A DNA stretch of 64,000 bases from an uncultured Draconibacterium sp. (GTDB taxonomy: Bacteria > Bacteroidota > Bacteroidia > Bacteroidales > Prolixibacteraceae), in the NCBI GenBank assembly GCA_963676455.1, contig OY781113.1, forward strand, positions 571,136-635,135, given 5' to 3'. This document shows positions 22,182 through 59,169 of this stretch, piece by piece; the first letter of the stretch is position 1, and every line of letters begins with the position of its first letter. Made by a program: the position numbers and the translations under genes. Below the pieces are notes generated by a model. That model was not told where the DNA came from. It worked only from the letters and a program-made list of their open reading frames with translations, and did not search any database.

Positions 22182-22243
22182 CGATTTTAAAATTTATTAT
22201 ACAGTTAAATAAAAGGGAAACCGTATCTTTTTTCTGTTAATAG

Positions 22244-23542: not shown

Positions 23543-23558
23543 AGTATTTTTATTTTGT

Positions 23559-28063: not shown

Positions 28064-28265
28064 GCTCTTTGTGTAACCGATTTTTAAAATGGTGCTTTTA
28101 AAGCCCGTGCGTAATTCTGGTTGAAATGTAAAAAGCCCCTGAAGAGCATTTCAAGGGCCTGTTGATAAATCCAGTGGTGGCACTGACGATTAATGCCAGC
28201 GACCCCGTTCAGAATATTTTTCGACTCAAAGATACATTTCCTTAGGGCTTTTTACTGATTAATTC
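28064..28265 (+). ncRNA. Putative IS110 bridge RNA (boundaries approximate)
   Basis: Lies in the left non-coding end downstream of a TATATTTG -7-like element (28050-28057). Contains stems (TTGAAATG/CATTTCAA, GCCC/GGGC) and matches to both junctions: CGTAATTC at 28110-28117 and TCAGAATATT at 28209-28218. Confidence 0.5.
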
Positions 28266-28272
28266 TAAAATT

Positions 28273-37878: not shown

Positions 37879-39345
37879 CTTTCGTAAAACGTTCAAAAAA
37901 CGTCAACTATGTAATTGTCTATTCGTATGAACGCTTCTCCCGTTCCGGGATCAATGGTGCTTCTATTGCAGATGATCTATTAAAAAAATATGGTGTTATC
38001 ACGCTGGCAACCACGCAGGAACTTGATCCAACAACTCCTTCCGGTTCTTTTCAGCAAAAAATATTGTTCCTATTTGGCCAGATGGACAATGAGCTAAGAC
38101 GGGATAAGGTGGTAACCGGAATGAAAGAATTGCTATTGAAAGGCTATTGGCTATGGGTTCCCCCCCCGTGGATATAGAGATTTAAATAGAGGAAAAGCAA
38201 CAGAACGTAAACTTGTGATCAATGAAGAAGGAAAAATGCTCAAAAAGGCTGTTGAATGGAAAGCATATAAACGTTTGTCTAATGCGGAGATTACAAGACG
38301 TTTAAATAAAATGGGAGTGGATATAACTGAGAAACGGTTAAACAACTTGTTTTTAAACCCATTTTATTGTGGACTTATTACCAGCAAATTAATTCCGGGA
38401 CAAATAATTGAGGGAAAACATGAGCCGTTGATTTCAAGGGATTTGTTTTTGGCAGTTCATAATATCAGGCAAGAAAAGAGAAGCCAGGGATTTGTTCATG
38501 AAAGATTTAACGACAACTTGCCTTTAAAAGTATTTGTGAAGTGTGACAAATGTGGAACTCCTTTAACAGGCTATTTGGTGAAAAAGAAAGGTCTTTATTA
38601 CTATAAATGCAATACAAAAGGGTGTAAAATAAACCGCAGTGCTAAAGCAATGCATGAAATGTTTAAAGCAGTATTGAAGGCCTTTAAAATAGAGAAAGAG
38701 GAGTTTGAGATTGTAAAACTACAATTGGAAGAGCAGATGGCGGTCTTTTTTAAATCCCAGATTGAAGAATCAAAATCATTGAAAAACAAGCTGACGGGGA
38801 TAAAAAGGAAACTGGAAACGATTGAAGAGCGTTTTGTGATCGGGGAAATTGATCGCAGTCTTTATGAAAAATTTAAGCCGAAATACGAAAAAGAATGTTT
38901 CGAAATTGAACAGGAACTTAGTAAAACAGGGGGATATAGATCGAACCTTGCAAAGGTGGTGAATTTTGCCACAAAAGTATGCCTTAATCCACTGATAATG
39001 TGAGACAAATCAGATGTGGACGGCAAAAGGATATTTCAAAATCTGCTATTTCCTGAAGGAATTATCTATAACCGGGAATCGGACAGTTATCGAACCACGA
39101 GAATAAATGCTTTCTTTTCCCCAATCCCTGAATTGGCAAGGGCTTTGAAAGGGCAAAAAAAAAGGGATTCTATCAAAAATGATAAAATCCCCCATTTGGT
39201 GAACCCAAGCGGAAAAATGTCGAACTTTTTAGCTGACGATTTTGATGCTGTTTTAAAGTTTGTAAGATTAGAGAAACAGAAGAGAAGTTTAGCTATGCCT
39301 GAGAATAATGTGTTGCTAATTAAAAATTTAATGAACAAATTCTAA
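37860..39345 (+). pseudogene. Large serine recombinase remnant (5'-truncated, C8 frameshift, internal TGA)
   Basis: VIVYSYERFSRSG resolvase motif, FLNPFYCG..GKHEPLIS recombinase domain, CDKCG zinc ribbon and coiled coil. Frameshift at C8 38160-38167 (C7 gives PPRGY); in-frame TGA at 39001-39003. Confidence 0.85.
39197..39225 (-). other. tRNA-3'-end-like relic (possible att-site remnant) no. 1
   Basis: TGGTGAACCC-N-TCGAAC; its reverse complement ends ...GGGTTCACCA. Same 21-nt motif spacing as the copy at 54164. Confidence 0.35.
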
Positions 39346-39445: not shown

Positions 39446-39626
39446 ATATTGCAACATTCCATAAAATTCCGGTCAAAATACTTTGTTGTTCGACGTGAAG
39501 TTTTTTTATAATCTTCATTGAAATAAAAAATATGATAAATGTAAAAATGAGTTTATGCGTTTCCTCCAGATCAACTATTTTTTAGTACTTTCAGCACGAT
39601 TTATTATCTGATATGGTTTTTAGTTT

Positions 39627-41318
39627 ATGATGTTTAGGGATAGCAAAATTATCTTTTATGTTGCCTTACTTCCTATTATTTTTTCTGTTGATTTAGTAGC
39701 AGCAATTGATGACGGCAATAGCAAGTTGCCGGATTTAGTAACTGAAATAAAGTATTATAGCAGCAATAAAGACTTATCAATCGATTCTGTAATAAATCTT
39801 TCTGACAGTTCATTCATAAAATTAGAGCATTATACCATACAGCCAAACGAAATATTCTGGCTCAAAGTAGCACTGGATAACCGGTTTGCTATGTCTGACG
39901 AATATTTTATTCATTTCTACGGACATTTAGACGAAGTTTATCTTTACCAGAAAAGCACCAACGGAAAATGGACGGTACAGCAGTCGGGGATTCTGGTTCC
40001 TGAAAAATTAAAAACCGTAAAAGGATATATCAAGGACAAAATTCCTTTCGGGATTACCGGTGACAACCAAACCATTCTGTATCTGAGAATAAAAAATGAG
40101 ATTGTTAAAGAACTCGACATATCCAGGATTCAGATTATCGATTCAGAATCGTTTGGCCGCACGATTTCCCAAACCAAACAAATTCAAAGCTTTTTTTTAG
40201 GAATTGTTAGCATCCTGTGTTTTTTTAATCTTCTGCTGTACCTTTTTACCGGAACCAGGATATACCTGTATTACATGCTACATGCCATTTTTTCAAGTAT
40301 TTATTTTATTTATGCCTTTCAATATGTCGAAACGGGTTATTTTGCCAATCATCCGGAAGTAAACTTATACTTTTTCTTTTCGGCCGCTTTTATTCCCGTG
40401 GTTTACAGTTGGTTTCTGTACGAATCGTTAAAGACTGATGTAAAAAGCAACGTATTAAGCATTGTTAGAAAATATGCTATTACAGTATCGGCTTTTGCCC
40501 TGCTTATTCCCGTAATCGCGCTTTTCGATTTTACTACGGCGGTGTTGGTCGATGATATTTATTCTATCGTAAATTCAATAATTATTGTTTTAATTGTAGT
40601 TCTGCTGTTCCGGAAAGTATCGAATACCGTAAAAATTATTTTAAGTGGTTCCCTGTTTCTGGTGGTTGGGGTATTTTTAACAGTGGTACTGAACTTCCGG
40701 AATGAACTTCCGGTTCATGTATATTTTTTCCAGGGTGGCTTTTTTATCGAACTCATATTCTTTACGGTAGCCATTAATTTTATGCAGCAAAACGAGCGTT
40801 TGGCAAAAATTAAAGCGGAATTAAAAAATACGCGACTGGTAAATGCAAAACTACGGGAAGAAAGAAAAGCACAGCAATTGCGTGAACAGGTTCAGCTTAA
40901 AGAACGCGACCTGGCTACCAAGGCAGCGGTGATCTCTCAAAAGGAAACATTGATAAAAAGTGTAACCTCGCAACTGGAAAAACAAGTTCAAAACAACTCG
41001 CTAAAAATAAAGGACATTAAAGATGTTGTTTCAAATCTGCATTCAAAAATTGGCAGTAATTTCTGGGATGAATTTGAAACACATTTTATACAGGTTCATC
41101 CTGATTTTTATAAATCACTGAATAAAAAGTACCCCACGTTAACCATAAACGAACGCCGACTTTGTGCGTTTATTAAATTAAACTTAACCACCAAGGAAAT
41201 TGCAAACATAACAAAACGAAATCCCGAAAGTATTCACATGACAAGGAGCCGGCTTCGCAAAAAAATGGGTCTGAATAAACACGACAACCTCGAAACCATC
41301 ATTTCCACAATCAGTTAG
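39627..41318 (+). CDS. One-component regulator: 7TM-DISM extracellular domain + 7TM + LuxR-like HTH
   Basis: Periplasmic FWLKV..HLDEVYLY domain; seven hydrophobic segments beginning FFLGIVSILCFFNLLLY; C-terminal FETHFIQVHPDF..LTINERRLCAFIKLNLTTKEIA..RSRLRKKMGL. Confidence 0.85.
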   Translation: MMFRDSKIIFYVALLPIIFSVDLVAAIDDGNSKLPDLVTEIKYYSSNKDLSIDSVINLSDSSFIKLEHYTIQPNEIFWLKVALDNRFAMSDEYFIHFYGHLDEVYLYQKSTNGKWTVQQSGILVPEKLKTVKGYIKDKIPFGITGDNQTILYLRIKNEIVKELDISRIQIIDSESFGRTISQTKQIQSFFLGIVSILCFFNLLLYLFTGTRIYLYYMLHAIFSSIYFIYAFQYVETGYFANHPEVNLYFFFSAAFIPVVYSWFLYESLKTDVKSNVLSIVRKYAITVSAFALLIPVIALFDFTTAVLVDDIYSIVNSIIIVLIVVLLFRKVSNTVKIILSGSLFLVVGVFLTVVLNFRNELPVHVYFFQGGFFIELIFFTVAINFMQQNERLAKIKAELKNTRLVNAKLREERKAQQLREQVQLKERDLATKAAVISQKETLIKSVTSQLEKQVQNNSLKIKDIKDVVSNLHSKIGSNFWDEFETHFIQVHPDFYKSLNKKYPTLTINERRLCAFIKLNLTTKEIANITKRNPESIHMTRSRLRKKMGLNKHDNLETIISTIS

Positions 41319-41335
41319 AACTAACATTTCCCTCA

Positions 41336-41451
41336 TTGTACTTGGTTGTACTTTCATCTCCAATCCCTTGATTTTTCTGCGTCTTTTTCTAATTGTATAG
41401 ACTTTGTTAGGTGTTTTTTTATTCGCAATAACCTAACCGGTGATACTTTTG
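41336..41451 (+). promoter_or_regulatory. Candidate promoter/operator of the T9SS-cargo operon
   Basis: TTGTACTT direct repeat (41336-41343, 41346-41353), a second TTGT pair (41393, 41404) and a TACTTTTG -7 element at 41444-41451. Confidence 0.5.
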
Positions 41452-41482
41452 TAGCCAGTACCAAAAACAATTAACGTGTTAA

Positions 41483-41962
41483 ATGAAAAAATCAAAGTTT
41501 TATTTCATCGTATTCTTTATTGCCTGTTTATTTTCTAAAACAAAGGCACAGGAAGTTATTGCAACATCGGGGAACCATTATGAAAATAATAAGATACAAA
41601 TAAGCTGGACGCTTGGCGAACCGGTTATTGAAACACTCTCAAATGAAAATTCCACACTAACACAAGGATTTCATCAGTCAAAACTAATTGTAACCGCAAT
41701 TAACGAAGTTTCTGTACCTGGGTTTAATATTACCGCGTATCCCAATCCAACCAGCGATATTCTGAAGGTTGAAGTTAAGAATGTAAGCGGGCAGGATTTG
41801 ATATATACCCTTTACAGTCCGGATGGTAGAATGCTGGTTCAGAAACAAATGGAATCCGACATTTCCGAGATCCCTATGTATAATTATGTGTCAGCTACCT
41901 ACTTTCTGAAAGTTTCCAGTAGTAATACGGTTTTGAAAACATTTAAAATAGTAAAGAGATAA
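41483..41962 (+). CDS. Small secreted protein consisting of a short N-domain plus a T9SS type-A C-terminal domain
   Basis: Signal peptide; QEVIATSG..ISWTLGEP..LTQGFHQ; AYPNPTSD..YFLKV..KTFKIVK. Confidence 0.88.
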   Translation: MKKSKFYFIVFFIACLFSKTKAQEVIATSGNHYENNKIQISWTLGEPVIETLSNENSTLTQGFHQSKLIVTAINEVSVPGFNITAYPNPTSDILKVEVKNVSGQDLIYTLYSPDGRMLVQKQMESDISEIPMYNYVSATYFLKVSSSNTVLKTFKIVKR

Positions 41963-42055
41963 TTTAAAGTATTCCTCAATTCCAAAAGCTAACCGTTTGC
42001 AACAAAACCGAATGCAAAAGAAAAAAAACATATCATGAAAACCTTCGCTGGCGCG

Positions 42056-42071
42056 TCCCGAAGTATCGGGA
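42056..42071. repeat. TCCCGA-N4-TCGGGA REP-like palindrome
   Basis: TCCCGAAGTATCGGGA lies just downstream of an ATGAAAACC start at 42035. Confidence 0.45.
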
Positions 42072-42105
42072 TGTAATTCCGTGCTTTAAGATTATTAAAA
42101 AGAAC

Positions 42106-42165
42106 ATAAAAACTATAATTGCAACAATTACATTCTTGATTTTAGGATTAACAACCTTTTCTTAA
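42106..42165 (+). pseudogene. Decayed signal-peptide relic (IKTIIATITFLILGLTTFS*T)
   Basis: Same GLTTF(S/A)Q motif as 42233 and 50753, with ATG->ATA and CAA->TAA changes. Confidence 0.5.
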
Positions 42166-42232
42166 ACTCACCGCTGCCGCGCGAATTTTTCGTGTGGTAT
42201 AACGAATAACCGGAAATCAACAACCAGATAAT

Positions 42233-42364
42233 ATGAAAACATTCCTTTTAACATTTATAGCATTAATCATCGGGCTAACAACTTTTTCCCAAACCCCAAC
42301 TTCGTTTAACTACCAGGCCGTGTTGCGTAATGCAGCAGGGAATGCTTTCATCATTAAGATATAA
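42233..42364 (+). pseudogene. 5' remnant (43 aa) of an S74-fibre-family gene
   Basis: MKTFLLTFIALIIGLTTFSQTPTSFNYQAVLRNAAGNAFIIKI*; DNA near-identical to 50789-50848 (GGGCTAACAACTTTT...TCGTTTAACTACCAGGCCGTGTTGCG). Confidence 0.8.
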
Positions 42365-42369
42365 TTAAT

Positions 42370-45300
42370 ATGAACATAAATATTTTACATCATTTCAAAC
42401 ACATTATCCTGACCTCTATTGTGCTTACAACTACGGTTTATATAGCTGTAGCACAAACCTATATTATAGGTGAAACAACTGGAACTGTAACAACCGACAA
42501 TGGTTATTTTTATGATTCTGGTGGCGAAACCGGTCTGTACATTAATAGTGAACACGATACACTAACATTTATACCTGCCACCGAAGGCTATTTTATAAGT
42601 TGCGAGTTTCTCTCGTTTGATGTTGAAGAGGGTTGTGACTACCTGTACATTTATGACGGAACAACTACCGATGCTACTCTAATTGGTAGCTATACCGGCA
42701 CTGACATCTCAACCATTGGAGATAATGGTATTGTAACAGCAGCACATGCCAACGGAGCCTTAACATTTGTGTTTTCTTCTGATGGTGGCGTAGTTGAAGA
42801 TGGCTGGAAAGCAGAAATTTCTATCACAACGCGCGAAGGCATATCAGCCTTTTTTTCAGCTGATGCAAGCAGCTCGTCAACATTTCCTTTTACTGTTAAT
42901 TTTACGGATGAGTCAATTGCTTATACCGGAGATGTAAGCTCCTGGGCATGGGATTTTGATGGTGATGGAATAACCGATAATACCGAACAAAATCCAAGTT
43001 ATACTTATACCGCTCCGGGATTTTATTCAGTAACCCTTATTGCCGGAAATGGAACCACATACGATACACTAACCGTAGATAATTACATACGTTGTGGAAT
43101 TTTTATAATGGGTGATGCTACCGGAACGATAACCACCGATGGCGGTTATTTTTATGATTCAGGAGGCAAAGACGGACAGTATAATCTTATGGAAAACTAT
43201 ACGCTAACGTTCATGCCCGAAACGCAAGGTAACTTTATAAGCTGCCAGTTTCTCTCACTTGATGTTTACAGCACCGACCTTTTATATATCTATGATGGAA
43301 CAGGTACCGATGCCACTCTAATAGGCAGTTATAGCGGTTCTGATATCGCAGCCATTGGAGATGGTGGTGTTGTAACTGCAACCAATGCCGATGGGGCTTT
43401 AACGTTTAAATTTTCTTCATCGTGGTGGGCTACTGCAGATGGCTGGGAAGCTAAAATAACTACAACCACACCTACCGAAGGTTTGTCGGCTAATTTTTCT
43501 GCCAATGCAACCAGTTCATCACTGCCCTTTACTGTTAATTTTACGGATGAGTCGGTTGCCTATAGTGGAGAAATAAATTCCTGGGCATGGGACTTCGATG
43601 GCGATGGAATAACCGATAATACCGAACAAAATCCAAGTTATACCTATTCAACTCAGGGTATCTATTCCGTAACACTTATTGCCGGAAATGGTACCACCTT
43701 AGATACGCTGACAAAAGAAGATTTCATAACTGCCGGAGAAGTCTTCCTAATGGGAAGTACAACAGGTACGGTTACCACCGAAGGCGGTTATTTTTATGAT
43801 TCAGGGGGCAATGACGGGCAATACAGTAATAATGAAGACTACACCATTACATTCATGCCGGCAACAGCAATAAAAACAGTAAGTTGTCAGTTTCTGTCCT
43901 TTAATGTTGAAAACAGTTACGACTATCTGGAAATTTATGATGGAACAACTACCGATGCAACGCTTATAGGGAGTTTTGATGGTTCTGATGCCTCAGCGAT
44001 TGGTGATAATGGGGTGATAACAGCAACAAATGTCAGCGGTGCTTTAACGTTTAAGTTTTATTCCGACAATAGTGGAACAATAGACGGTTGGGTAACAGAA
44101 ATAACAACCCAGTCCCGCGATGGTTTGTATACAACTTTTTCTGCCGATGCAACCAGTTCTAAAACACTACCATTTACCGTTAATTTTACGGACGAGTCGG
44201 TTGCTTTTAGCGGAGAGATAAACTCCTGGGCATGGGATTTTAATGGCGATGGAATAACCGATAACACCGAACAGAATCCTTCCTATACTTATACCGATGT
44301 TGGCACTTATTCTGTTACTCTTATTGCCGGAAACGGTACTACTCTGGATACACGAACAATGGAGGATTTCATAACAACAGGAGATACCTTTCTTATGGGA
44401 AGTACTACCGACACAGTAGTAACCTATGGCGGTTATTTTTATGATTCGGGTGGTGAAAACGAGCAGTATAGCAGTAAGGAAGATTATACAGTAACATTTA
44501 TTCCTGCCAATGAAGGCTATAATGTTATAAGTTGCGAAATCCTCTCTTTTGCCTCTGAACAAGATTATGACTATCTGGAAATATATGATGGAACAAGCAC
44601 CGACGCACCTAGTTTAGGATATGCTTCCGGTACCGATGCTTCAGGCATAGGGGGCAATGGCATAGCAACAGCAACAAACACAGAAGGAGCTTTAACGGTT
44701 AGGTTTATTTCTGATGATTGGAATCAGGCGGATGGTTGGAAGGCAAAGATTACTGTGCTGCCGCATGAAGGCTTAGCAGCAGATTTCTCTGCCGGTACAA
44801 GAGGCTCGTCAATTTTACCGTTTACGGTTGATTTTACAGACAAGACCATTGCTTATTCCGGAGAAGTAAACTCCTGGGCATGGGATTTCGATGGCGACGG
44901 AACAATCGATGACACCGAACAAAATCCAAGCTTTACTTACACTACGGCAGGGCTTTATCCGGTAACTCTTGTCGCCGGAAATGGAACAACATACGATACA
45001 CTAACCGTACAAAATTACGTTTTGGCAGGACTAACCGATTATATTATGGGAAATTCGCCCGACACCGTGATAACCGACGGCGGTTATTTTTATGATTCGG
45101 GCGGTGACAATGATACCTATATTAATAATGAAGATTACACGCTTACATTTTTGCCTGCAACAGACGGTGAATATATCAGCTGTCAGTTTTTATCATTTCT
45201 GGTTGAAAGCTCTTATGACTATCTTGATATTTATAATGGAACAAGCACTGATGCAACTCTTATAGGACATTTCGAAGGCACAGATGTATCAGCTATTGGA

Positions 45301-48300
45301 AGTAACGGAGTAGTAACAGCAACCAATGCCGATGGTGCATTAACGTTTAAATTTTATTCAGATGGAGGAGGATATGATGATGGATGGAAAGCGAAGATAA
45401 GCACAAAGACAGGTGTTTCAGCAGCTTTTGTAACAAATGAAAATAGCACACTGGAACTTTCTCTTACTGTTAATTTTACTGATGAATCGGTGGCTCTTTC
45501 CGGAGAAATAAATTCATGGGAATGGGATTTTGATGGCGATGGAATAACAGATAATACCGAACAAAACCCGACATATACTTATTCCACCGCAGGCATCTAT
45601 TCTGTAACTCTAATAGCCGGAAATGGAACCACAAAGGATACACTGACCATGGAAGATTACATTTCGGTTGGGCAGACAGATTATATTATGGGGAGTACAC
45701 CGGATACTATAATAACCGATGAAGGTTATTTTTACGATTCTGGTGGCGAAGATGGTGAGTATCGGAATAATGAAGACTACACGCTCACATTTATGCCTGC
45801 AACAGAGGGGACAGCTTTAAGTTTCCAATTTCTCTCGTTTGAGCTTTACGATGGCGCCGACTATTTGGAGATTTACGACGGAACATCTACCAATGCCACA
45901 TTGATAGGAAAGTTTATCTATATTGATGTCGCCTCAAGCATTGGAAGTGAAGGGAAAGTAACAGCAACAAATGTCAGTGGTGCATTAACTTTTAAATTCC
46001 ATTCCGGTGAGAGTTTTACAAAAAGTGGCTGGAAAGCTGAAATTACAGCTATAGGTGTATCTTCAGCTTTTACGATTGACAAAAACTGCTCATTAACGTT
46101 ACCATTTACGGTTAACTTTACCGATGAGTCAGTTGCTTATGTCGGAGAGATAAACTCTTGGAAATGGGATTTCAATGGGGATGGAATAACTGATGCCACC
46201 GAACAAAACCCAAGCTACACCTATACTGCAAACGGAGCTTATTCGGTAACACTTATAACCGGTAATGGTGCCGTATTCGACACAATAACAATGGATGATT
46301 ACATTACAATTGGGCATGCTATAATGGGAAACACACAAGACACCGTTATGGTAGATAACGGTTATTTTTATGATTCAGGAGGTGAAGATGGTGAGTATAG
46401 AAATGATGAAGACTATACGGTCACGTTTATGCCTACAACTGAAGGTAAAGCAGTAAGTTGTGAGTTTCTGTCTTTTGCTGTTGAATTCTTTTGTGATTAT
46501 CTACAGATTTATGACGGGGCAAGCACCGATGCTCCACTAATAGGTCAATATGACGAAGAATCAGCTGATATTGGAACCAACTGGAAAGTAATAGCAACAA
46601 ATGCCAGCGGCGCTTTAACTTTCCGTTTCTATTCCGATTTTACAGATTCAAGAAGTGGATGGAAAGCAAAGATGACTACGGTTGATGTATCGGCAGAATT
46701 TTCCGTAGATAAACACAGCTCGTTAACAGTACCATTTACAGTTAATTTTACGGATTTATCGACAGCATTTACCGATCCTATAAACTCCTGGGAATGGGAT
46801 TTTGATGGCGACGGAATAATCGATAATACAGAGCAAAACCCAAGCTATACCTATACTACCAAAGGTGTGTATCCGATAACGCTTATTGTCGGAAATGGTA
46901 GTGAGCAGGATACGCTTACAAAGGAAAATTTCATTGCTCCGGGTGGCTATATCCTGCAAGATGATGATGTAGTGGTAGAGAATAATGTCATCATTTCCTG
47001 CTCTTACGATTTTCTTATCACCGATATTATTATCCCTGATACGCTTGATGGACAGGCAGTGTTTGGTACAGCTGATGGCAGCTCTCTTATTAACGGGGTT
47101 TTTTATAATAAGGATATCACTTCCATTAACCTGCCCGCTACTATTGATACTATCGGATTCAATTCATTTTGCACCAATGATATTACTACACTTGACTTAA
47201 GTAAATGCTCTAAGTTGACATATATAGATGACTATGCATTCTATGGAAACTCGCTTACTTCAGTTGATTTGAGTGGTTGTTCATCCCTGAATTATATTGG
47301 TAGTGGAATCTTTAATGACAATTCTTTAACTTCTTTTACTCTACCTGCAAATGAGATATACGACTATTATTATTGGAAAGATGGTGTAGGAAATAATTAT
47401 GTAGCCGGCGATGAAGTCAGCAATCTTAATACCAATTATTATGTGGTTGGATACTATTTTATAAAGTTTATTGACTGGAATAGTACAGAGTTGAAAGTTG
47501 ATACTTTACTTTTCGGTGGTAATGCCGTTCCTCCTGCAGACCCAGTCCGTGAGGGATACGATTTCACAGGTTGGGACACAACTTATACCAATATCACTGA
47601 AGGTTATAATGTAACGGCTCAATATGAAATCAACACCTACACAATAACATTCAAAGATTGGGACAATTCGGTGTTAAAAAGAGATAATGTAGAATACGGT
47701 AGCGATGCAACAGCACCAACCGACCCGGTTCGAGAAGGCTACACTTTTACCGGTTGGGATACTACGTTTACAAACATTACCGAGAGTTATGATGTAACGG
47801 CCCAATATGAAATCAACACCTACACAATAACATTCAAGGATTGGGACAATTCGGTGTTAAAAACAGATAATGTAGAATACGGTAGCGATGCAACAGCACC
47901 AGACGACCCGGTACGGGTGGGTTACACTTTTACCGGTTGGGACACTACGTTTACAAACATCACCGAAAGCTACGATGTAACGGCCCAATATGAAATCAAC
48001 ACCTACACAATAACTTTTAAAGACTGGGATGACACTGTTCTTAAATTAGAAACAGTAGAATACGGTAGCGATGCAACAGCACCAACCGACCCGGTTCGAG
48101 AAGGCTACACTTTTAGCGGTTGGGACACTACATTTACAAACATCACAGAAAGCTACGATGTAACTGCCCAATATGAAATCAACACCTACACAATAACATT
48201 CAAGGATTGGGACAATTCGGTGTTAAAAACAGATAATGTAGAATACGGTAGCGATGCAACAGTGCCAGACGACCCGGTACGGGTGGGTTACACTTTTACC

Positions 48301-50625
48301 GGTTGGGACACTACGTTTACAAACATCACCGAAAGCTACGATGTAACGGCCCAATATGAAATCAACACCTACACAATAACTTTTAAAGACTGGGATGACA
48401 CTGTTCTTAAATTAGAAACAGTAGAATACGGTAGCGATGCAACAGCACCAACCGACCCGGTTCGAGAAGGCTACACTTTTAGCGGTTGGGACACTACATT
48501 TACAAACATCACAGAAAGCTACGATGTAACCGCCGAATATGAAATTAATACCTACACAATAACTTTTAAAGACTGGGATGACACTGTTCTTAAATTAGAA
48601 ACAGTAGAATACGGTAGCGATGCAACAGTGCCAGACGACCCGGTACGGGTGGGTTACACTTTTACCGGTTGGGACACTACGTTTACAAACATCACCGAAA
48701 GCTACGATGTAACGGCCCAATATGAAATCAACACCTACACAATAACTTTTAAAGACTGGGATGACACTGTTCTTAAATTAGAAACAGTAGAATACGGTAG
48801 CGATGCAACAGCACCAACCGACCCGGTTCGAGAAGGCTACACTTTTAGCGGTTGGGACACTACATTTACAAACATCACCGAAAGCTACGATGTAACCGCC
48901 GAATATGAAATTAATACCTACACAATAACTTTTAAAGACTGGGATGACACTGTTCTTAAATTAGAAACAGTAGAATACGGTAGCGATGCAACAGCACCAA
49001 CCGACCCGGTTCGAGAAGGCTACACTTTTACTGGTTGGGATACTACGTTTACCAACATCACCGAAAGCTACTATGTAACAGCCGAATATGAAATCAATAC
49101 CTACACAATAACATTCAAAGATTGGGATAATTCGGTGTTAAAAAGAGATAATGTAGAATACGGTAGCGATGCAACAGCACCAACCGACCCGGTTCGAAAA
49201 GGCTACACTTTTAGCGGTTGGGACACTACATTTACAAACATCACCGAAAGCTACGATGTAACCGCCGAATATGAAATCAACACCTACACAATAACATTCA
49301 AGGATTGGGACAATTCGGTGTTAAAAACAGATAATGTAGAATACGGTAGCGATGCAACAGCACCAACCGACCCGGTTCGAGAAGGCTACACTTTTACTGG
49401 TTGGGATACTACGTTTACCAACATCACCAAAAGCTACGATATAACTGCCGAATATGAAATTAATACCTACACAATAACATTCAAAGATTGGGACAATTCG
49501 GTGTTAAAAAGAGATAATGTAGAATACGGTAGCGATGCAACAGCACCAACCGACCCGGTTCGAGAAGGCTACACTTTTACCGGTTGGGATACTACGTTTA
49601 CAAACATCACCGAAAGCTACGATGTAACCGCCGAATATGAAATTAATTACACTATAACTTTTAAAGACTGGGATGACACTGTTCTTAAATTAGAAACAGT
49701 AGAATACGGTAGTGATGCAACAGCGCCAGACGACCCAGTCCGTGAGGGTTACACTTTTACCGGTTGGGACACTACGTTTACCAACATTACCGAGAGTTAT
49801 GATGTAACGGCCCAATATGAAATCAATACCTACACAATAACATTCAAAGATTGGGACAATTCGGTGTTAAAAAGAGATAATGTAGAATACGGTAGCGATG
49901 CAACAGCACCAACCGACCCGGTTCGAGAAGGCTACACTTTTACCGGTTGGGATACTACGTTTACAAACATCACCGAAAGCTACGATGTAACCGCCGAATA
50001 TGAAATTAATACCTACACTATAACTTTTAAAGACTGGGATGACACTGTTCTTAAATTAGAAACAGTAGAATACGGTAGCGATGCAACAGCACCAACCGAC
50101 CCGGTTCGAGAAGGCTACACTTTTACCGGTTGGGATACTACGTTTACCAACATTACTGAAAGCTACGATGTAACTGCCGAATATGAAATCAATACCTATA
50201 CAATAACTTTTAAAGACTGGGATGACACTGTTCTTAAATTAGAAACAGTAGAATACGGTAGCGATGCAACAGCACCAACCGACCCGGTTCGAGAAGGCTA
50301 CACTTTTACTGGTTGGGATACTACGTTTACAAACATCACAGAAAGCTACGATGTAACGGCTGAATATGAAATTATAAGTAGTGTGACAGAAACGATAAAT
50401 ACAGTGTTTGAGGTTTATCCTAATCCAACCAACGGAATGTTGTATGTATCAGGTAAAGTAGGTTGGCAAATACAGGTCTTTAGCCTTTCCGGTCAGTTCT
50501 TACAATATTTAATTATGAATAATGAGAAGCTTCAGTTGGATTTGTCAGAATATCCTGAAGGCATGTATTTGTTAAAAGCAGGCAATGAATCTGAACAAGT
50601 TATAAAAAAAGTGATTCGGAGATGA
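42370..50625 (+). CDS. Giant T9SS-secreted adhesin: 7x(CUB-PKD), short BspA-type LRR, 16x InlB-B/Flg_new-type repeats, T9SS CTD
   Basis: Seven GYFYDSGG..DYL.IYDG (CUB) units, each followed by VNFTD.S..W.WDF.GDG (PKD); FYGNSLTSVDL LRR; 61-aa repeats TYTITFKDWD..PVREGYTFTGW; C-terminal VYPNPTNG..GMYLLKA. Confidence 0.9.
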   Translation: MNINILHHFKHIILTSIVLTTTVYIAVAQTYIIGETTGTVTTDNGYFYDSGGETGLYINSEHDTLTFIPATEGYFISCEFLSFDVEEGCDYLYIYDGTTTDATLIGSYTGTDISTIGDNGIVTAAHANGALTFVFSSDGGVVEDGWKAEISITTREGISAFFSADASSSSTFPFTVNFTDESIAYTGDVSSWAWDFDGDGITDNTEQNPSYTYTAPGFYSVTLIAGNGTTYDTLTVDNYIRCGIFIMGDATGTITTDGGYFYDSGGKDGQYNLMENYTLTFMPETQGNFISCQFLSLDVYSTDLLYIYDGTGTDATLIGSYSGSDIAAIGDGGVVTATNADGALTFKFSSSWWATADGWEAKITTTTPTEGLSANFSANATSSSLPFTVNFTDESVAYSGEINSWAWDFDGDGITDNTEQNPSYTYSTQGIYSVTLIAGNGTTLDTLTKEDFITAGEVFLMGSTTGTVTTEGGYFYDSGGNDGQYSNNEDYTITFMPATAIKTVSCQFLSFNVENSYDYLEIYDGTTTDATLIGSFDGSDASAIGDNGVITATNVSGALTFKFYSDNSGTIDGWVTEITTQSRDGLYTTFSADATSSKTLPFTVNFTDESVAFSGEINSWAWDFNGDGITDNTEQNPSYTYTDVGTYSVTLIAGNGTTLDTRTMEDFITTGDTFLMGSTTDTVVTYGGYFYDSGGENEQYSSKEDYTVTFIPANEGYNVISCEILSFASEQDYDYLEIYDGTSTDAPSLGYASGTDASGIGGNGIATATNTEGALTVRFISDDWNQADGWKAKITVLPHEGLAADFSAGTRGSSILPFTVDFTDKTIAYSGEVNSWAWDFDGDGTIDDTEQNPSFTYTTAGLYPVTLVAGNGTTYDTLTVQNYVLAGLTDYIMGNSPDTVITDGGYFYDSGGDNDTYINNEDYTLTFLPATDGEYISCQFLSFLVESSYDYLDIYNGTSTDATLIGHFEGTDVSAIGSNGVVTATNADGALTFKFYSDGGGYDDGWKAKISTKTGVSAAFVTNENSTLELSLTVNFTDESVALSGEINSWEWDFDGDGITDNTEQNPTYTYSTAGIYSVTLIAGNGTTKDTLTMEDYISVGQTDYIMGSTPDTIITDEGYFYDSGGEDGEYRNNEDYTLTFMPATEGTALSFQFLSFELYDGADYLEIYDGTSTNATLIGKFIYIDVASSIGSEGKVTATNVSGALTFKFHSGESFTKSGWKAEITAIGVSSAFTIDKNCSLTLPFTVNFTDESVAYVGEINSWKWDFNGDGITDATEQNPSYTYTANGAYSVTLITGNGAVFDTITMDDYITIGHAIMGNTQDTVMVDNGYFYDSGGEDGEYRNDEDYTVTFMPTTEGKAVSCEFLSFAVEFFCDYLQIYDGASTDAPLIGQYDEESADIGTNWKVIATNASGALTFRFYSDFTDSRSGWKAKMTTVDVSAEFSVDKHSSLTVPFTVNFTDLSTAFTDPINSWEWDFDGDGIIDNTEQNPSYTYTTKGVYPITLIVGNGSEQDTLTKENFIAPGGYILQDDDVVVENNVIISCSYDFLITDIIIPDTLDGQAVFGTADGSSLINGVFYNKDITSINLPATIDTIGFNSFCTNDITTLDLSKCSKLTYIDDYAFYGNSLTSVDLSGCSSLNYIGSGIFNDNSLTSFTLPANEIYDYYYWKDGVGNNYVAGDEVSNLNTNYYVVGYYFIKFIDWNSTELKVDTLLFGGNAVPPADPVREGYDFTGWDTTYTNITEGYNVTAQYEINTYTITFKDWDNSVLKRDNVEYGSDATAPTDPVREGYTFTGWDTTFTNITESYDVTAQYEINTYTITFKDWDNSVLKTDNVEYGSDATAPDDPVRVGYTFTGWDTTFTNITESYDVTAQYEINTYTITFKDWDDTVLKLETVEYGSDATAPTDPVREGYTFSGWDTTFTNITESYDVTAQYEINTYTITFKDWDNSVLKTDNVEYGSDATVPDDPVRVGYTFTGWDTTFTNITESYDVTAQYEINTYTITFKDWDDTVLKLETVEYGSDATAPTDPVREGYTFSGWDTTFTNITESYDVTAEYEINTYTITFKDWDDTVLKLETVEYGSDATVPDDPVRVGYTFTGWDTTFTNITESYDVTAQYEINTYTITFKDWDDTVLKLETVEYGSDATAPTDPVREGYTFSGWDTTFTNITESYDVTAEYEINTYTITFKDWDDTVLKLETVEYGSDATAPTDPVREGYTFTGWDTTFTNITESYYVTAEYEINTYTITFKDWDNSVLKRDNVEYGSDATAPTDPVRKGYTFSGWDTTFTNITESYDVTAEYEINTYTITFKDWDNSVLKTDNVEYGSDATAPTDPVREGYTFTGWDTTFTNITKSYDITAEYEINTYTITFKDWDNSVLKRDNVEYGSDATAPTDPVREGYTFTGWDTTFTNITESYDVTAEYEINYTITFKDWDDTVLKLETVEYGSDATAPDDPVREGYTFTGWDTTFTNITESYDVTAQYEINTYTITFKDWDNSVLKRDNVEYGSDATAPTDPVREGYTFTGWDTTFTNITESYDVTAEYEINTYTITFKDWDDTVLKLETVEYGSDATAPTDPVREGYTFTGWDTTFTNITESYDVTAEYEINTYTITFKDWDDTVLKLETVEYGSDATAPTDPVREGYTFTGWDTTFTNITESYDVTAEYEIISSVTETINTVFEVYPNPTNGMLYVSGKVGWQIQVFSLSGQFLQYLIMNNEKLQLDLSEYPEGMYLLKAGNESEQVIKKVIRR
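47450..50376 (+). repeat. Sixteen tandem 183-bp coding repeats
   Basis: Unit period confirmed, e.g. CAACACCTAC at 47631 and 47814. One unit has a 3-bp deletion near 49647. Confidence 0.92.
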
Positions 50626-50752
50626 GGATTAATTTATGGATAAATATATTTTTTAAGGATTCTGCAAAAAATGAAACAGGTCACTTCTTTTGGGAGCCAC
50701 TGACAATTGTTATTTTTTTACTAACTGAGTTGAAGAAAAATAAAAACCAAAA

Positions 50753-53700
50753 ATGAAGGAACTATTTACATCGATTTTATTGTTAATTGGGCTAACAACT
50801 TTTGCCCAAACACCAACCTCGTTTAACTACCAGGCCGTGTTGCGCGATTCTTCCGGTGGAATTCTTGTCAACCAGCAAGTTGAAATCGGCGTTGCCTTGT
50901 TACAAGGCAGTGTTACCGGAACGGAAATATTTACCGAAACGCATTCGGTAACCACCAACAACTTTGGGCTGGCAAACCTGCAAATTGGTTCGGTAAACAC
51001 GGCCGATATGGAAAACATCGACTGGAGTGCCGGACCGTATTTTATTCAAATCTCGGTTGATGGAACCATAATGGGCACCAGTCAGCTGTTGAGTGTGCCT
51101 TATGCTTTACATGCCGTAACCGTGGAAAACGATAAAGTAGAAGATGCCGATGCCGACGCAAGCAACGAGTTACAAATTCTTTCCATAAGTAACGACACGA
51201 TTTACCTCAGCAACGGTGGAAAAGTAAAACTCCCGGCAGAAACCGACCCTACATTTGCAAGCAGCCAGGCAGTAAACATAACAGCAACCGACATTACAAA
51301 TTTAAGCAACTTAGCGGGCACCAACACAGGCGACCAGGATTTAAGCGCATTGGCAAGCAAAATCGCTTTGGGCGACTCCACAGCACAGGTACGTAGCGAA
51401 ATACCCGATGTAAGCGGTTTTTTAACTTCAGAAACCGACCCAATATATACAAGCAGCGAAGCAGCTAATATTTCAGCAACCGACATCACCCATTTGGGTA
51501 ATCTATCAGGCACCAACACAGGCGACCAGGATATTAGTGGTATTACTACAAATGCAACAGCAATAACAGCAATTGAAACAGAGCAAACAACACAAAACGA
51601 TGCTATTGCTCTCAATACTGCAAAAACAGGAATTACCACAGCACAAGCCAATGCAATTGTAGCCAATACAGGCAAAGACACAACAGGCATTTATCATGCA
51701 AACCGCACTGCATTAGATGCAGTAACAGGCACCAACACAGGCGACCAGGATTTAAGCGCATTGGCAAGCAAAATCGCTTTGGGCGACTCCACAGCACAGG
51801 TACGTAGCGAAATACCCGATGTAAGCGGTTTTTTAACTTCAGAAACCGACCCAATATATACAAGCAGCGAAGCAGCTAATATTTCAGCAACCGACATCAC
51901 CCATTTGGGTAATCTATCAGGCACCAACACAGGCGACCAGGATATTAGTGGTATTACTACAAATGCAACAGCAATAACAGCAATTGAAACAGAGCAAACA
52001 ACACAAAACGATGCTATTGCTCTCAATACTGCAAAAACAGGAATTACCACAGCACAAGCCAATGCAATTGTAGCCAATACAGGCAAAGACACCACAGGCA
52101 TTTATCATGCAAACCGCACTGCCTTAGATGCTGTTACTGGTGTAAACACGGGCGACCAGGATTTAAGTGCCTTGGCTACCAAAACCGCCTTACGCGATTC
52201 CACAGCACAGGTTCGCAGTGAAATACCCGATGTAAGCAGTATTGCCGATAACCGACAGGCAATAATCGACACTGCGGCAACTATCCGTTCCGATATGCTT
52301 ACAACTGAATTCGACCCGGTTTTTGCTGCTTCCATAGCTGCGGCGATTACTTCAACAGATACCGCCAACTGGAACCGGGACACTTCTGCAACCAACGAAA
52401 TAGAATTGCCCTCACAAACCGGCAATGCAGGAAAATACTTAACTACCGATGGAAGCAATACAAGCTGGGAGGCAATTAGTACAGCACACAATGCACTTAC
52501 CTTAGGCTCCGCAAACGGTCTATCCTTAAGTGGTCAAACGTTAAGTTTAGCACAAGCTTCAACTTCAAGTGCCGGGGCATTGTCGTCATCCGATAAAACG
52601 AAATTGAATAAAATAACATCTTATGGCACTACTGCCAGCGGAGGTTATTCAACTGCAATGGGCAATTTTATTAAAGTATCGGGCTATAATTCTTTTGGTA
52701 TCGGATTAGATGATACTGAAAGAACATTATCAAAAGATAGAACAATGGCAATTATGGGTGGCAACATTGGTATTGGAACTACAAGCCCTTCAAAAAAACT
52801 GCATGTTTATCAGGATGATGAAGGACAGCCTTTACTATTGGAAACAAATGGAGATTATGCCGGATTTGCATTAAAGAACAAAACCAAACAATGGGTGCTT
52901 AATAATTCAACCAAAGGTTTTGGAATTTGGGACGATGCTGCCAGTGCTTATCGAATGCTTATTGATGATGATGGCAACATTGGTATTGGAACTACAAGCC
53001 CTTCAAAAAAACTGCATGTTTATCAGGATGATGAAGGACAGCCTTTACTATTGGAAACAAATGGAGATTATGCCGGATTTGCATTAAAGAACAAAACCAA
53101 ACAATGGGTGCTTAATAATTCAACCAAAGGTTTTGGAATTTGGGACGATGCTGCCAGTGCTTATCGAATGCTTATTGATGATGATGGCAACGTTGGTATT
53201 GGTACTACTTCTCCCGATTATCCCCTGGAAGTATCAGGATCTGGTTGGTATCGCGAAAACCAAACCATTGCCTTTCTTGAACTTCCCAGCAGCATTTTAA
53301 AACCATATTATGGCCAAACAACCACTACGGCTTGGGATTATTCAATTGTTGCATCATCATATATTAAAGCAGAAGGACTCCATGTGTTTTCCGATAGAAG
53401 AATAAAAACCAATATTCAACCAAACAGTTGCAAAACAGACCTCGACTTGGTGAATAAAATGGAAGTGGTCAATTACCAATATATCGATAAAGTAGAAAAG
53501 GGAAACATTACCAAAAAAGGGTTTATTGCCCAGCAAATAGAAGAAGTATTACCCGATGCAGTGGGTAAGAGCAAAGCATTTATCCCCGATATTTATAAAA
53601 AAGCTAGCCGTGTTGTGGCCGATTCAACCACCAATACATTAACCATAAGTACACCTGTAGCCCACAATTTAAAAGAAGGCAATTTGCTGCGTTTTATTAC

Positions 53701-54079
53701 ACTCGGAGGAACACACGAAGAAGAAGTGCTTTCGGTACTTTCCGACAGTACGTTTATCGTTAGCTTGGTAGAAGGCGATTGTTCCCAGGTTTTCGTTTAC
53801 GGCAAAAAAATAGATGATTTCCGCGCCATCGATTACGACCAGGTTTTTTCGGCAGGCATTGGCGCCATACAGGAGCTCAGCCGACAAAACGACGAACTAA
53901 AACAAACCATCGAAAACCTGCAAAACGCAAATACAGCTTTAAAGGCAGAGAAAGACATTGATGTTGAAAAATTACAAGCTGAGAATTCTGAAATAAAACA
54001 ACGCCTCGAAACGCTGGAAGCGTTGATGAAAAATACGCTAAATACAATTACCGAAGAAAAAGCGGCCGTCCAAAAATAA
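50753..54079 (+). CDS. Secreted phage-tail-fibre-like protein with peptidase S74 intramolecular chaperone and C-terminal coiled coil
   Basis: Signal peptide + QTPTSFNYQAVLR..LLSVPYALHA N-domain; ETDP and GTNTGDQD repeats; GNIGIGTTSP repeats; FSDRRIKTNI..GFIAQ..IDYD (S74); coiled-coil tail. Confidence 0.85.
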   Translation: MKELFTSILLLIGLTTFAQTPTSFNYQAVLRDSSGGILVNQQVEIGVALLQGSVTGTEIFTETHSVTTNNFGLANLQIGSVNTADMENIDWSAGPYFIQISVDGTIMGTSQLLSVPYALHAVTVENDKVEDADADASNELQILSISNDTIYLSNGGKVKLPAETDPTFASSQAVNITATDITNLSNLAGTNTGDQDLSALASKIALGDSTAQVRSEIPDVSGFLTSETDPIYTSSEAANISATDITHLGNLSGTNTGDQDISGITTNATAITAIETEQTTQNDAIALNTAKTGITTAQANAIVANTGKDTTGIYHANRTALDAVTGTNTGDQDLSALASKIALGDSTAQVRSEIPDVSGFLTSETDPIYTSSEAANISATDITHLGNLSGTNTGDQDISGITTNATAITAIETEQTTQNDAIALNTAKTGITTAQANAIVANTGKDTTGIYHANRTALDAVTGVNTGDQDLSALATKTALRDSTAQVRSEIPDVSSIADNRQAIIDTAATIRSDMLTTEFDPVFAASIAAAITSTDTANWNRDTSATNEIELPSQTGNAGKYLTTDGSNTSWEAISTAHNALTLGSANGLSLSGQTLSLAQASTSSAGALSSSDKTKLNKITSYGTTASGGYSTAMGNFIKVSGYNSFGIGLDDTERTLSKDRTMAIMGGNIGIGTTSPSKKLHVYQDDEGQPLLLETNGDYAGFALKNKTKQWVLNNSTKGFGIWDDAASAYRMLIDDDGNIGIGTTSPSKKLHVYQDDEGQPLLLETNGDYAGFALKNKTKQWVLNNSTKGFGIWDDAASAYRMLIDDDGNVGIGTTSPDYPLEVSGSGWYRENQTIAFLELPSSILKPYYGQTTTTAWDYSIVASSYIKAEGLHVFSDRRIKTNIQPNSCKTDLDLVNKMEVVNYQYIDKVEKGNITKKGFIAQQIEEVLPDAVGKSKAFIPDIYKKASRVVADSTTNTLTISTPVAHNLKEGNLLRFITLGGTHEEEVLSVLSDSTFIVSLVEGDCSQVFVYGKKIDDFRAIDYDQVFSAGIGAIQELSRQNDELKQTIENLQNANTALKAEKDIDVEKLQAENSEIKQRLETLEALMKNTLNTITEEKAAVQK
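51317..52138 (+). repeat. Two tandem 411-bp (137-aa) near-identical repeats plus a partial third
   Basis: GGCACCAACACAGGCGACCAGGATTTAAG at 51317 and 51728; a diverged start at 52139. Confidence 0.92.
52760..53185 (+). repeat. Two tandem 213-bp (71-aa) identical repeats
   Basis: GGCAACATTGGTATTGGAACTACAAGCC at 52760 and 52973; the next GGCAAC falls at 53186. Confidence 0.92.
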
Positions 54080-54489: not shown

Positions 54490-55042
54490 GAATCCACCCT
54501 CAAAGAAAGTGGACTTATAAGAAGGCCCCGATAATTGGCCAAAGTTGAGCCGCTGTTACTCTTCGAGACGTTCTTGTTTTTCTTGATATTTCATGTATTT
54601 CTTGATCTTGTCTTCGTCAAGACCAATTGTGTCAACACGATATCCTTTGGACCAAAAATGATTGCCCCAATATGGTTTTGTTCGCAATTGAGGATAACTT
54701 TTGAAAATCTTAATGGCTGTTTTGCCTTTCAAGATTCCCATTAGTTGCGATATTGAGATCTTCGGTGGAACACTGACAATCAGATGTACATGATCTTTTT
54801 TAATATTTATCTCGATCATTTCACAGGATTTCCATTCCAATAACATCGGGATATCATGACCAAGAAGCTCTTTGACAAGGCCTTCAAGAATACGAAATCG
54901 ATACTTCGGTGTCCATACAATGTGGTATGTACACCTATAAATTACATGATTTAATTTCTTAAAATTGCACATGTAACGAAGTTAAATAATTTTCAGGCTT
55001 AGCCAATTAAACATGACCACTCCCCAAGGAGGTGGTTTTAAC
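54490..55042 (-). mobile_element. IS200-type element (tnpA only)
   Basis: Subterminal hairpins TCCAC..GTGGA (54493-54513) and ACCACTCC-CCAA-GGAGGTGGT (55016-55036) flank tnpA. Exact ends are approximate. Confidence 0.8.
54556..54972 (-). CDS. tnpA: IS200/IS605 Y1 (HUH) transposase
   Basis: YHIVWTPKYR, DHVHLIV (HUH), HFWSKGY and KYMKYQ (catalytic Tyr). Confidence 0.95.
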   Translation of the reverse strand: MCNFKKLNHVIYRCTYHIVWTPKYRFRILEGLVKELLGHDIPMLLEWKSCEMIEINIKKDHVHLIVSVPPKISISQLMGILKGKTAIKIFKSYPQLRTKPYWGNHFWSKGYRVDTIGLDEDKIKKYMKYQEKQERLEE

Positions 55043-58746: not shown

Positions 58747-59169
58747 ATGAGTAAATTTACCTTACTATCTATTCTTATTTTAAGCACTTGCCTGTCGCGG
58801 CAAACGTTTGGTTCTTCGAACGCAACAGTCCCAATTATTGTAACAGTCCCAGTTATTTACGTCGATTCTGCCGCTGTAGCTGGCGGCAACGGCACAAGTT
58901 GGGCAAAAGCCTACGCTTCGTTACAGGATGCCCTGGATAAAGCGACTTCAGGCGACACCATCTTTATTGCCAAAGGAACATATTATCCGTCGTCGGGCTA
59001 TGAGCTTTGCGACGATTCGGGCGATTCTACCCGTTATTATCATTTCGAGATGAAAGACAATGTGGCAATTTACGGTGGCTTAGTTGGTGGCACCGAAAAC
59101 ACACTCTGCCCAACTGCCATGCCCGACGATTTGAAATTATCCGGATTACATCTAAAAATGACATCATGA
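58747..59169 (+). pseudogene. Truncated N-terminus of a secreted right-handed beta-helix (pectin-lyase-like) protein
   Basis: Signal peptide + VIYVDSAA..GTSWAKAYASLQDAL..IAKGTYYP..IYGG, homologous to the module starting near 61055. Homology ends at GTE (~59097). Confidence 0.75.

Follow-up and report, generated by a model that had tools for sequence, protein, structure and literature searches.

In a 64-kb stretch of chromosome from an uncultured Draconibacterium sp. (contig OY781113.1; the whole stretch is hereafter called the window), a gene for a 159-residue secreted protein and a downstream gene for an 1108-residue fibre with a Peptidase_S74 domain represent two protein families that are encoded as a tight same-strand unit, here called the cassette. 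The two families are complementary in their export signals, in that the small protein always carries the C-terminal domain (CTD) of cargo of the type IX secretion system (T9SS), with the fibre never being tagged in this way, while the dyad of the S74 domain in the fibre is intact. Judging from the sequences, we give an even chance to the interpretation that the small protein is a trans-acting CTD adaptor by which the fibres are exported and anchored at the cell surface.

Linkage and domain make-up of the two families

Adjacency was determined from both sides, using a genome scan with an alignment of the small protein (554 relatives found, 78 loci returned) and an independent metagenome scan (80 loci returned) seeded with FibN, the N-terminal domain formed by the first ~125 residues of the fibre; on the fibre side, cassettes were called with a hidden Markov model (HMM) spanning both of the small-protein motif types described below. 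A FibN gene was immediately adjacent and on the same strand for 70 of the 85 testable small genes (82%), being found downstream in 59 cases and upstream in 11, and tandem cassettes were common in the loci of this genome scan. From the metagenome loci, 59 of 75 testable FibN genes (79%) were found in a same-strand cassette, 50 of them coming directly after the small gene, 4 standing at a later place in a chain and 5 lying just upstream of the small gene. The distance from the stop codon of the small gene to the FibN start had a median of 12 nt and was at most 30 nt in 68 of 99 gaps. These values upheld the original prediction, made from the window alone, of a two-gene system whose families co-occur.

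Clustering of the neighbouring genes within 8 kb identified only the small-protein and FibN families as conserved (132 and 118 loci, respectively), the next-ranked families being a TPR histidine kinase and a LytTR regulator, in 21 and 16 loci, and no third component such as a PorP-like outer-membrane barrel was conserved within that distance. Rosetta-stone proteins, be it fusions of the adaptor motif with FibN or FibN together with a CTD, were seen in none of the examined loci, and a CTD was found in 0 of 193 open reading frames (ORFs) encoding FibN proteins and likewise in 0 of the 120 matches listed.

The gene of the small protein (41483–41962, + strand) encodes a signal peptide at residues 1–22, identified by inspection and modelled as a helix by AlphaFold2 (AF2), with a predicted cut before Q23 between MKKSKFYFIVFFIACLFSKTKA and QEV. 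This is followed by an N-terminal motif at residues ~23–70 (41549–41692; ..ISWTLGEPVIETLSNENSTLTQGFHQ..), here called the N-motif and of a type that we denote E-type, and by a type A T9SS CTD occupying residues 85–159 at the extreme C-terminus (41735–41959). Both CTD profiles scored above their cut-offs, with 36.2 bits for PF18962 Por_Secre_tail (cut-off 27) and 41.3 bits for TIGR04183 (cut-off 23). In the AF2 model the CTD formed the Ig-like beta-sandwich of type A cargo with a predicted local distance difference test (pLDDT) score of 80–93, and a Foldseek search gave the mirolase CTD as its best match (8qb1, E 6e-4, TMt 0.68), together with the CTDs of RemA and NucA in the translocon complexes 8gl6, 8gl8 and 8glk (TMt 0.66–0.77); Foldseek and hmmsearch returned no matches other than such T9SS cargo CTDs. 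By all features open to computation, whether of sequence or of modelled fold, the small protein thus qualifies as predicted type A T9SS cargo.

It is not the CTD that is best conserved in this family, however, but the N-motif (..SWTLGEPVIET..LTQGFHQ..), in which W42, G45, E46, I49, T51, L59, Q61, G62, F63 and Q65 were invariant in 32 homologs. The N-motif had a pLDDT of only ~50, and it has no Pfam or NCBIfam entry and no sequence relative in the PDB. The homologs form 772 clusters at 90% identity, with nearly all proteins being ~155–190 residues long among the 120 matches listed. Once the CTD is removed, the mature protein would be a peptide of ~60 residues, for which Pfam, NCBIfam and PDB profile searches gave no other recognisable function. 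An earlier description of the small protein as little more than a CTD is therefore right with regard to residues 85–159 and falls slightly short with regard to the conserved motif preceding them.

The fibre gene (50753–54079, +) encodes a signal peptide at residues 1–18, with the cut between MKELFTSILLLIGLTTFA and QTP, and then a FibN domain at residues 19–~125 (50807–51127; QTPTSFNYQAVLR through LLSVPYA) of the class that we denote non-MN. AF2 modelled residues 22–112 as a confident Ig-like beta-sandwich (pLDDT >93), with the invariant SVPYA segment that follows being without resolved fold. Two sets of repeats come next, one of 411 bp in 2.2 copies (137 residues; 51317–52237) and one of 213 bp in 2.1 copies (71 residues, beta-helix-type; 52759–53208), and residues 715–830 of the stalk matched Bdellovibrio Bd2133 in a PDB sequence search (8ond, E 4e-10). 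The core of Peptidase_S74 (PF13884) lies at residues 880–937 (53390–53563, +; E 9.9e-15, 55 bits, cut-off 22), the S74 portion as a whole extending from S880 (53390) to the C-terminus and including a C-terminal coiled coil, and the C-terminus also matched the MYRF ICA domain in the PDB search. The SDxxxK dyad is preserved as S880-D-R-R-I-K885, with the same motif in 26 S74-bearing homologs, and Ser880 (codon 53390–53392) is predicted to be the site of autocleavage, with Lys885 as the general base. No CTD was detected in this protein using Pfam, NCBIfam or a local CTD HMM, which sets it apart from T9SS cargo. The Sec signal, conserved N-domain, repeats and S74 domain that had been read from the DNA, as well as the lack of a CTD, were hence all found where they had been placed.

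FibN, having the pattern QxPxxxxYQAVxR ... TTNxxGL ... W ... SQLLSVPYA, forms the N-terminal part of proteins that differ greatly in their C-termini. When 1.84 billion cluster representatives were searched with its profile, 37,160 clusters at 50% identity were obtained, 15,334 of them at E <= 1e-30, with the match almost always located at residues 1–138. The domain has no Pfam or NCBIfam entry and its profile found no sequence match in the PDB, where a fold search gave generic Ig-like structures only and nothing at E <= 1e-3; a fold search against viral models yielded marginal matches (best E 1.7e-4, TM <= 0.48). Among 78 sampled FibN proteins the tips were S74 in 19, Fib_succ_major in 13, Lcl_C in 11, collagen in 10, YadA head in 6, MopE in 4, BclA_C in 2 and C1q in 2, many of these domains being typically trimeric and extracellular. 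With S74 tips in only 19 of the 78, and with enzymes also among the alternatives, the view of the fibre as a domesticated phage tail fibre proved too narrow.

We also noted single FibN proteins ending in glycoside hydrolase 97 or a non-specific endonuclease, and others ending in metal-binding MopE repeats, suggesting that the N-domain may display catalytic cargo too. A few proteins (P0361, of 916 residues and with six matched stretches, as well as P0362 and P0363) carry FibN in tandem copies, so that it is not strictly a single N-terminal module. In one locus (L167, 1589–1867 and 1868–2137), a truncated gene for bAvd, which is an accessory protein of diversity-generating retroelements, lies between two FibN-Lcl_C fibre genes, the C-type-lectin-like tips of which have the classic target fold of these elements. 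Such an element tied to the Lcl_C tips was considered and dismissed, as the locus held only the truncated bAvd and no template repeat or reverse transcriptase. In the intergenic region after bAvd lies what is left of a small CTD adaptor gene, namely its decayed 3' end (..YFVRVISENQSIKEFKIIKN*).

Matching classes, adaptor model and rival explanations

Adaptor candidates and FibN domains both come in two classes, and these match. The E-type adaptor (WTLGE..QGFHQ) pairs with FibN of the non-MN class (..SFNYQ..TTNxFGL..), and a Q-type adaptor (YSVGQ..QGVQQ) with FibN of the MN class (..KMSYQ..TTNANGL..). The Q-type protein, a more divergent CTD protein found upstream of many metagenome FibN genes, carries the motif ..SGGxAxGSGGSxSYSVGQVVYT..GSVAQGVQQPYEI.. 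and forms 5,983 clusters, with nearly all members being 162–165 residues long among the 120 matches listed. E-type adaptors were paired with non-MN fibres in 90/90 direct and 20/20 chained cases, and Q-type adaptors with MN fibres in 22/23 direct and 2/2 chained cases, giving a concordance of 134/135 typed pairs (Fisher p = 1.6e-22, a value that ignores phylogenetic relatedness). The pair in the window is likewise matched, having an E-type adaptor and a surviving fibre of the non-MN class. Both classes were moreover found on one contig (3968110), with E-type cassettes at loci L001 and L005 and Q-type cassettes at L166, and their presence within a single genome argues that class matching is more than a species signal. 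In paired alignments of 100 cassettes, the top 0.1% of the mutual information (MI) scores after APC correction reached 0.31 for N-motif against FibN versus 0.17 for CTD against FibN, a difference of about 2-fold, and the signal between N-motif and FibN resolved into the two classes.

The mechanism that we propose would begin with adaptor and fibre each reaching the periplasm by Sec. Both signal peptides are predicted to be cut before Gln, consistent with the Bacteroidota 'Q-rule' of signal-peptide cleavage before this residue. The fibre would then trimerise in the periplasm, here driven by its C-terminal S74 chaperone, which would release itself at Ser880, whereupon the N-motif of the adaptor, for which no fold of its own is predicted, would fold onto or bind FibN. 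The adaptor CTD would lead the complex to the T9SS translocon, where PorU would take off the CTD and join the new C-terminus of the adaptor to anionic lipopolysaccharide (A-LPS), so that the fibre would be held at its N-terminal end and would expose its variable C-terminal tip to the outside as an adhesin. Such an arrangement would explain why the fibres never carry a CTD in cis, since a CTD so placed would fix the fibre by its tip and, where the tip is S74, leave together with the released chaperone. In the window, the first partner of the adaptor has been deleted, and the S74 fibre that survives there, encoded 8.8 kb downstream, matches the adaptor in class and is a plausible client. As a general proposition, namely that T9SS exports and anchors folded, CTD-less trimeric fibres via a trans adaptor of ~160 residues, with at least two orthogonal adaptor/N-domain classes, and that this would be the general display route of this large Bacteroidota fibre family, we put the model at slightly less than an even chance, on the same kind of sequence evidence.

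Several observations weigh against this model. About 18–21% of the genes of either family stand without an adjacent partner, and in the window itself adaptor and surviving fibre are separated by the 8.8 kb just mentioned. Class concordance and MI could both arise if whole cassettes are passed on together, by inheritance or by transfer, and in a mirror-tree (Mantel) analysis the partial r with FibN was 0.32 for the N-motif and 0.44 for the CTD used as control; as the correlation was no higher for the N-motif than for the CTD, this analysis does not discriminate between interaction and co-inheritance. Furthermore, the literature that was searched gave no description of a CTD-less protein hitch-hiking through T9SS or of a CTD adaptor acting in trans.

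Linkage, spacing, MI and class matching would support binding between the two proteins equally well if the small protein were secreted alone by T9SS, to be fixed to A-LPS as a docking peg, with the fibres either crossing the outer membrane in some other manner or being released by vesicles or lysis. The mosaic adhesive trimeric (MAT) fibres of Bdellovibrio are indeed surface-exposed in an organism without T9SS (PMC10769870). We nonetheless consider such a role as anchor only to be unlikely, because no alternative export component is conserved in the 130+ cassettes, outside re-capture of a released fibre would be inefficient, and the tight and probably translationally coupled operon suggests assembly prior to export. 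Genetic coupling and matching classes, together with the lack of a predicted independent fold of the N-motif in the AF2 model, would also suit an assembly or quality-control factor for the N-terminal end of the fibre, such as an anti-aggregation cap, or a co-secreted partner having another role. This would, however, leave the constant T9SS sorting domain of the small protein without a reason and the exit of CTD-less fibres from the periplasm unexplained, and we find it rather improbable.

Little probability can be given to mere co-regulation, with independent surface proteins sharing one operon and having no physical interaction, even if surface-protein genes are often clustered in Bacteroidota and some genes of either family stand alone. 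Class matching that is all but perfect, even with both classes in a single genome, would then be hard to reconcile, as would the median spacing of 12 nt, the mature small protein of only ~60 residues having no other recognisable function, and the systematic absence of a CTD from the fibres. Finally, the fibre might be part of a phage-derived particle, such as a prophage or tailocin, with its genes lying elsewhere and the small gene being unrelated, and its S74 domain, its weak PHROG tail-fibre matches (E ~7e-9) and the insertion sequence (IS) elements and broken recombinase of the window could be taken to suggest so. Those PHROG matches were confined to the S74 and beta-helix motifs, though, the fibre bears a Sec signal peptide, and most members of its family have non-phage tips. 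Pfam, PHROG and related profile scans found no phage structural genes in the 64-kb window, confirming what had been noted from the sequence, and none recurred in 160 related loci. Among the 2.9 million viral contigs of IMG/VR, 2 carried FibN and 1 carried the adaptor, agreeing with the expectation that the system is not prophage-borne; with this near-absence and a window free of phage genes, the prophage or tailocin origin was rejected, and it retains hardly any probability.

Decay of the cassette and its surroundings

Three genes on the + strand occupy positions 41483–54079, encoding the 159-residue small protein, a giant adhesin of 2751 residues (42370–50625, +; Pfam and NCBIfam matches) and the 1108-residue fibre. 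The intergenic region between the small gene and the adhesin gene (41963–42369) contains two fibre-gene stubs, the origin of which could be traced using a relative (L165) whose small protein is 90% identical to that of the window. There the gene order is regulator, small gene, intact FibN-Lcl_C fibre of 812 residues, stub and giant adhesin. With blastn, window positions 39503–42129 aligned to 8019–10654 of L165 and positions 42254–49548 to 13183–20475, such that ~2.5 kb of L165 (10655–13182), or nearly the entire fibre gene, is missing from the window. Relic 1 (42106–42165, +), identified by blastn and by alignment with L165, is the signal-peptide stub of a FibN-Lcl_C fibre gene that once lay directly after the small gene; compared with L165, its start codon is changed from ATG to ATA and a Gln codon from CAA to TAA. 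It is followed by the leftover 3' untranslated region of the deleted gene (42166–42232, +), which aligned to L165 13100–13140, a segment located just past the FibN-Lcl_C stop codon, and which carries a conserved G+C-rich, hairpin-like segment (GCTGCCGCGCGAAT..TTCGTGTGG) that we infer to be a terminator.

Relic 2 (42233–42364, +), translated as MKTFLLTFIALIIGLTTFSQTPTSFNYQAVLRNAAGNAFIIKI*, is a 43-codon stub of another FibN gene, having a signal peptide plus QTPTSFNYQAVLRN and then unrelated residues, and is found directly upstream of the gene for the giant adhesin. The same stub is found in L165, there with an in-frame stop, and relic 2 is the older of the two. The synteny with L165 together with the stubs of the window shows that a fibre gene directly followed the small gene and was lost recently. 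A fibre gene in that place had been proposed on the strength of the stub at 42233; such a gene did exist, but its remnant is the stub at 42106–42165, that at 42233 being older. Insertion of the adhesin into the partner gene of the adaptor could be ruled out as an explanation, since L165 has an intact partner gene as well as the adhesin.

In a further relative (L163) the order is as in the window, the adhesin being followed by an S74 fibre of 98% identity and then by the Y1 transposase, the response regulator and the kinase, and two other relatives have the small gene followed by a FibN-Lcl_C gene and nothing more. The S74 fibre of the window is accordingly best read, from gene order, as the downstream member of a former chain, and in this region we see, in decayed form, a cassette that is widespread in Bacteroidota and consists of a small CTD protein and then at least one CTD-less trimeric fibre. 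We also observed that some FibN homologs (P0009, P0010, P0016, P0050 and P0052) are predicted to have a pair of signal-peptide-like segments, one after the other, ahead of the domain (MKAFLLAF..IAVFA.TFRYRANFSRGVVLFVFLLLSFSTF[AS]QTP), resembling the stacked 5' stubs of the window. There are hints in these sequences that the conserved 5' ends of FibN genes may be recombination points for the swapping of fibre genes.

Directly upstream of the small gene lies a gene for a 7TMR-DISM sensor of 563 residues with a C-terminal helix–turn–helix (HTH) of the DUF6377/SusR_C-like type (39627–41318, +; Pfam). A gene of this kind takes the same place in L001, L002, L004, L037, L024 and L165, and according to the neighbour clustering it is not kept beyond the clade of the window itself, making it a candidate lineage-specific regulator of the cassette. 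The giant adhesin contains six CUB, seven PKD, LRR_5 and fifteen Flg_new domains and has a type A CTD of its own. It is found at the same position in L165 and L163 and is absent from cassettes elsewhere, and it is a neighbour and no component of the small-gene/fibre cassette. Its Flg_new array (47562–50372) consists of 15.4 near-identical repeats of 183 bp (61 residues), accompanied by 6–7 CUB-PKD modules, and its length is 2751 residues in the window, at least 3057 in L165 and 3301 in L163, which suggests fast change of repeat number among close relatives.

The rest of the window, comprising regulators, SusC/D, thioredoxin-like proteins, an M16 peptidase, IS elements, a broken serine recombinase and an IS200-like transposase, is ordinary chromosome bearing several mobile-element scars. 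Just upstream of the 7TMR-DISM/HTH gene, the large serine recombinase (37860–39003) is broken into at least two ORFs, one with the Resolvase N-domain and the other with Recombinase and Zn-ribbon. Just downstream of the fibre lies the IS200-like Y1 transposase gene (54556–54972, − strand), the product of which is truncated to only 96 residues in L163. After a two-component system there follows a second giant CTD protein (~59166–64000), extending past the end of the window in synteny with L163 18414–23327; its L163 counterpart has 5031 residues with LRR_5, a Pel9A-like beta-helix and Por_Secre_tail, and its presence makes the region a cluster of large T9SS surface proteins. Two apparent copies of one IS transposase (DUF772 and DDE_Tnp_1; 10401–11774, +, and 33745–35112, −) are inverted, flank ~22 kb and have near-identical Pfam scores. 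Within 26138–31465, a SusC-like TonB-dependent receptor is seemingly split by an IS110-family transposase gene (28273–29652), its Plug/CarboxypepD_reg part lying at 29585–31465 (−) and an unannotated ORF of 603 residues at 26138–27949 (−) adjoining the SusD gene (24665–26116). Five paralogous thioredoxin-like proteins (AhpC/TSA, Redoxin) form an array (19833–24656 and 13259–14272) that adjoins DsbD and the M16 peptidase, downstream of the SusC/D pair.

Significance and comparison with known systems

Literature searches on T9SS, whether in connection with S74 and intramolecular chaperones or with tail fibres, piggybacking or secretomes, turned up no system of this kind. The assertion that no such system had been characterised nevertheless needed amendment, as the MAT fibres (PMC10769870) are an analogue, albeit one without a known anchor and without T9SS. 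MAT-like fibres and T9SS cargo are thus each known, and what we infer to be new is a CTD supplied in trans by a separate small protein. If the adaptor model holds, it would add a new rule to T9SS, with cargo being recruited through a separate tagged subunit and anchored by its N-terminus, and would provide two uncharacterised families of very high abundance with a function (37,160 clusters for FibN and thousands of clusters at 90% identity for the small CTD proteins). It would also describe a route by which Bacteroidota show phage-like, collagen-like and lectin-tipped trimeric fibres for adhesion to particles, hosts or prey, and the two orthogonal adaptor/FibN classes would amount to a specificity code, with possible use as a tool for protein display on Bacteroidota surfaces.

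With the phage endosialidase and tailspike chaperones of the Peptidase_S74 type (K1F endoNF, T5 pb1) and with MYRF ICA, the fibre of the window shares the S74 match, the SDxxxK dyad, the position after a beta-helix and the coiled coil that follows, and by analogy its S74 domain is expected to serve in trimerisation and then to release itself. Unlike the phage S74 tailspikes, the fibre is chromosomally encoded and Sec-exported and has an N-domain of the cell-anchoring type in place of a virion attachment domain, and S74 is optional in the FibN family (19/78 sampled).

Canonical type A cargo of T9SS, such as RgpB, mirolase, RemA and NucA, carries its CTD in cis, and this is removed by PorU with the cargo being linked to A-LPS. 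The small protein is typical of such cargo in every hallmark of sequence and fold, but its passenger is only a conserved peptide of ~60 residues, and the large functional protein is a separate, CTD-less polypeptide. SprB of Flavobacterium johnsoniae is a type B T9SS cargo with a cognate, adjacent PorP/SprF-like partner, SprF. That pair resembles the proposed role of the cassette in having a dedicated helper encoded beside a large surface adhesin or filament and needed for its display by T9SS, and in forming cognate-specific pairs; there, however, an outer-membrane beta-barrel acts as helper to a cargo that bears a type B CTD, whereas here a CTD-less cargo would be served by a tiny soluble CTD helper.

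In the collagen-like BclA fibres of Bacillus, the N-terminal domain attaches to the basal-layer protein BxpB, so that there, too, a trimeric fibre is held by its N-terminus on a small dedicated protein, and BclA_C and collagen tips also occur in the FibN family. In Tat hitch-hiker export, as exemplified by PaoABC, a folded partner lacking a signal rides on the signal-bearing subunit (PMC4273604). Both cases involve machineries and sequences unrelated to those discussed here and serve as analogies only.

The closest likeness is to the MAT fibres of Bdellovibrio bacteriovorus, for example Bd3182 and Bd2133 (Caulton et al. 2024, PMC10769870). These are built from a signal peptide, a conserved beta-rich N-domain of ~110–130 residues, a long trimeric stalk and mosaic tips, the family having 13 S74 and 8 non-S74 tips and many paralogs per genome, and a cell-surface element has been proposed as the target of the N-domain, with no anchoring partner known and no adjacent adaptor gene reported (PMC10769870). 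Bacteroidota are mentioned neither in that paper nor in its supplements (PMC10769870). As compared by description, FibN fibres have the same architecture, in which a signal peptide and a beta-rich N-domain precede a trimeric stalk that ends in S74 or in another tip; homology is seen in the stalk, through the match of the window fibre to Bd2133, the N-domains being compared by description only. The MAT fibres differ in belonging to another phylum without T9SS and in the predatory context of Bdellovibrio, none being known for the FibN cassettes, while the FibN fibres have a CTD-bearing partner encoded next door, which, if the adaptor model is true, would provide a worked example of the anchor still missing for the MAT fibres.

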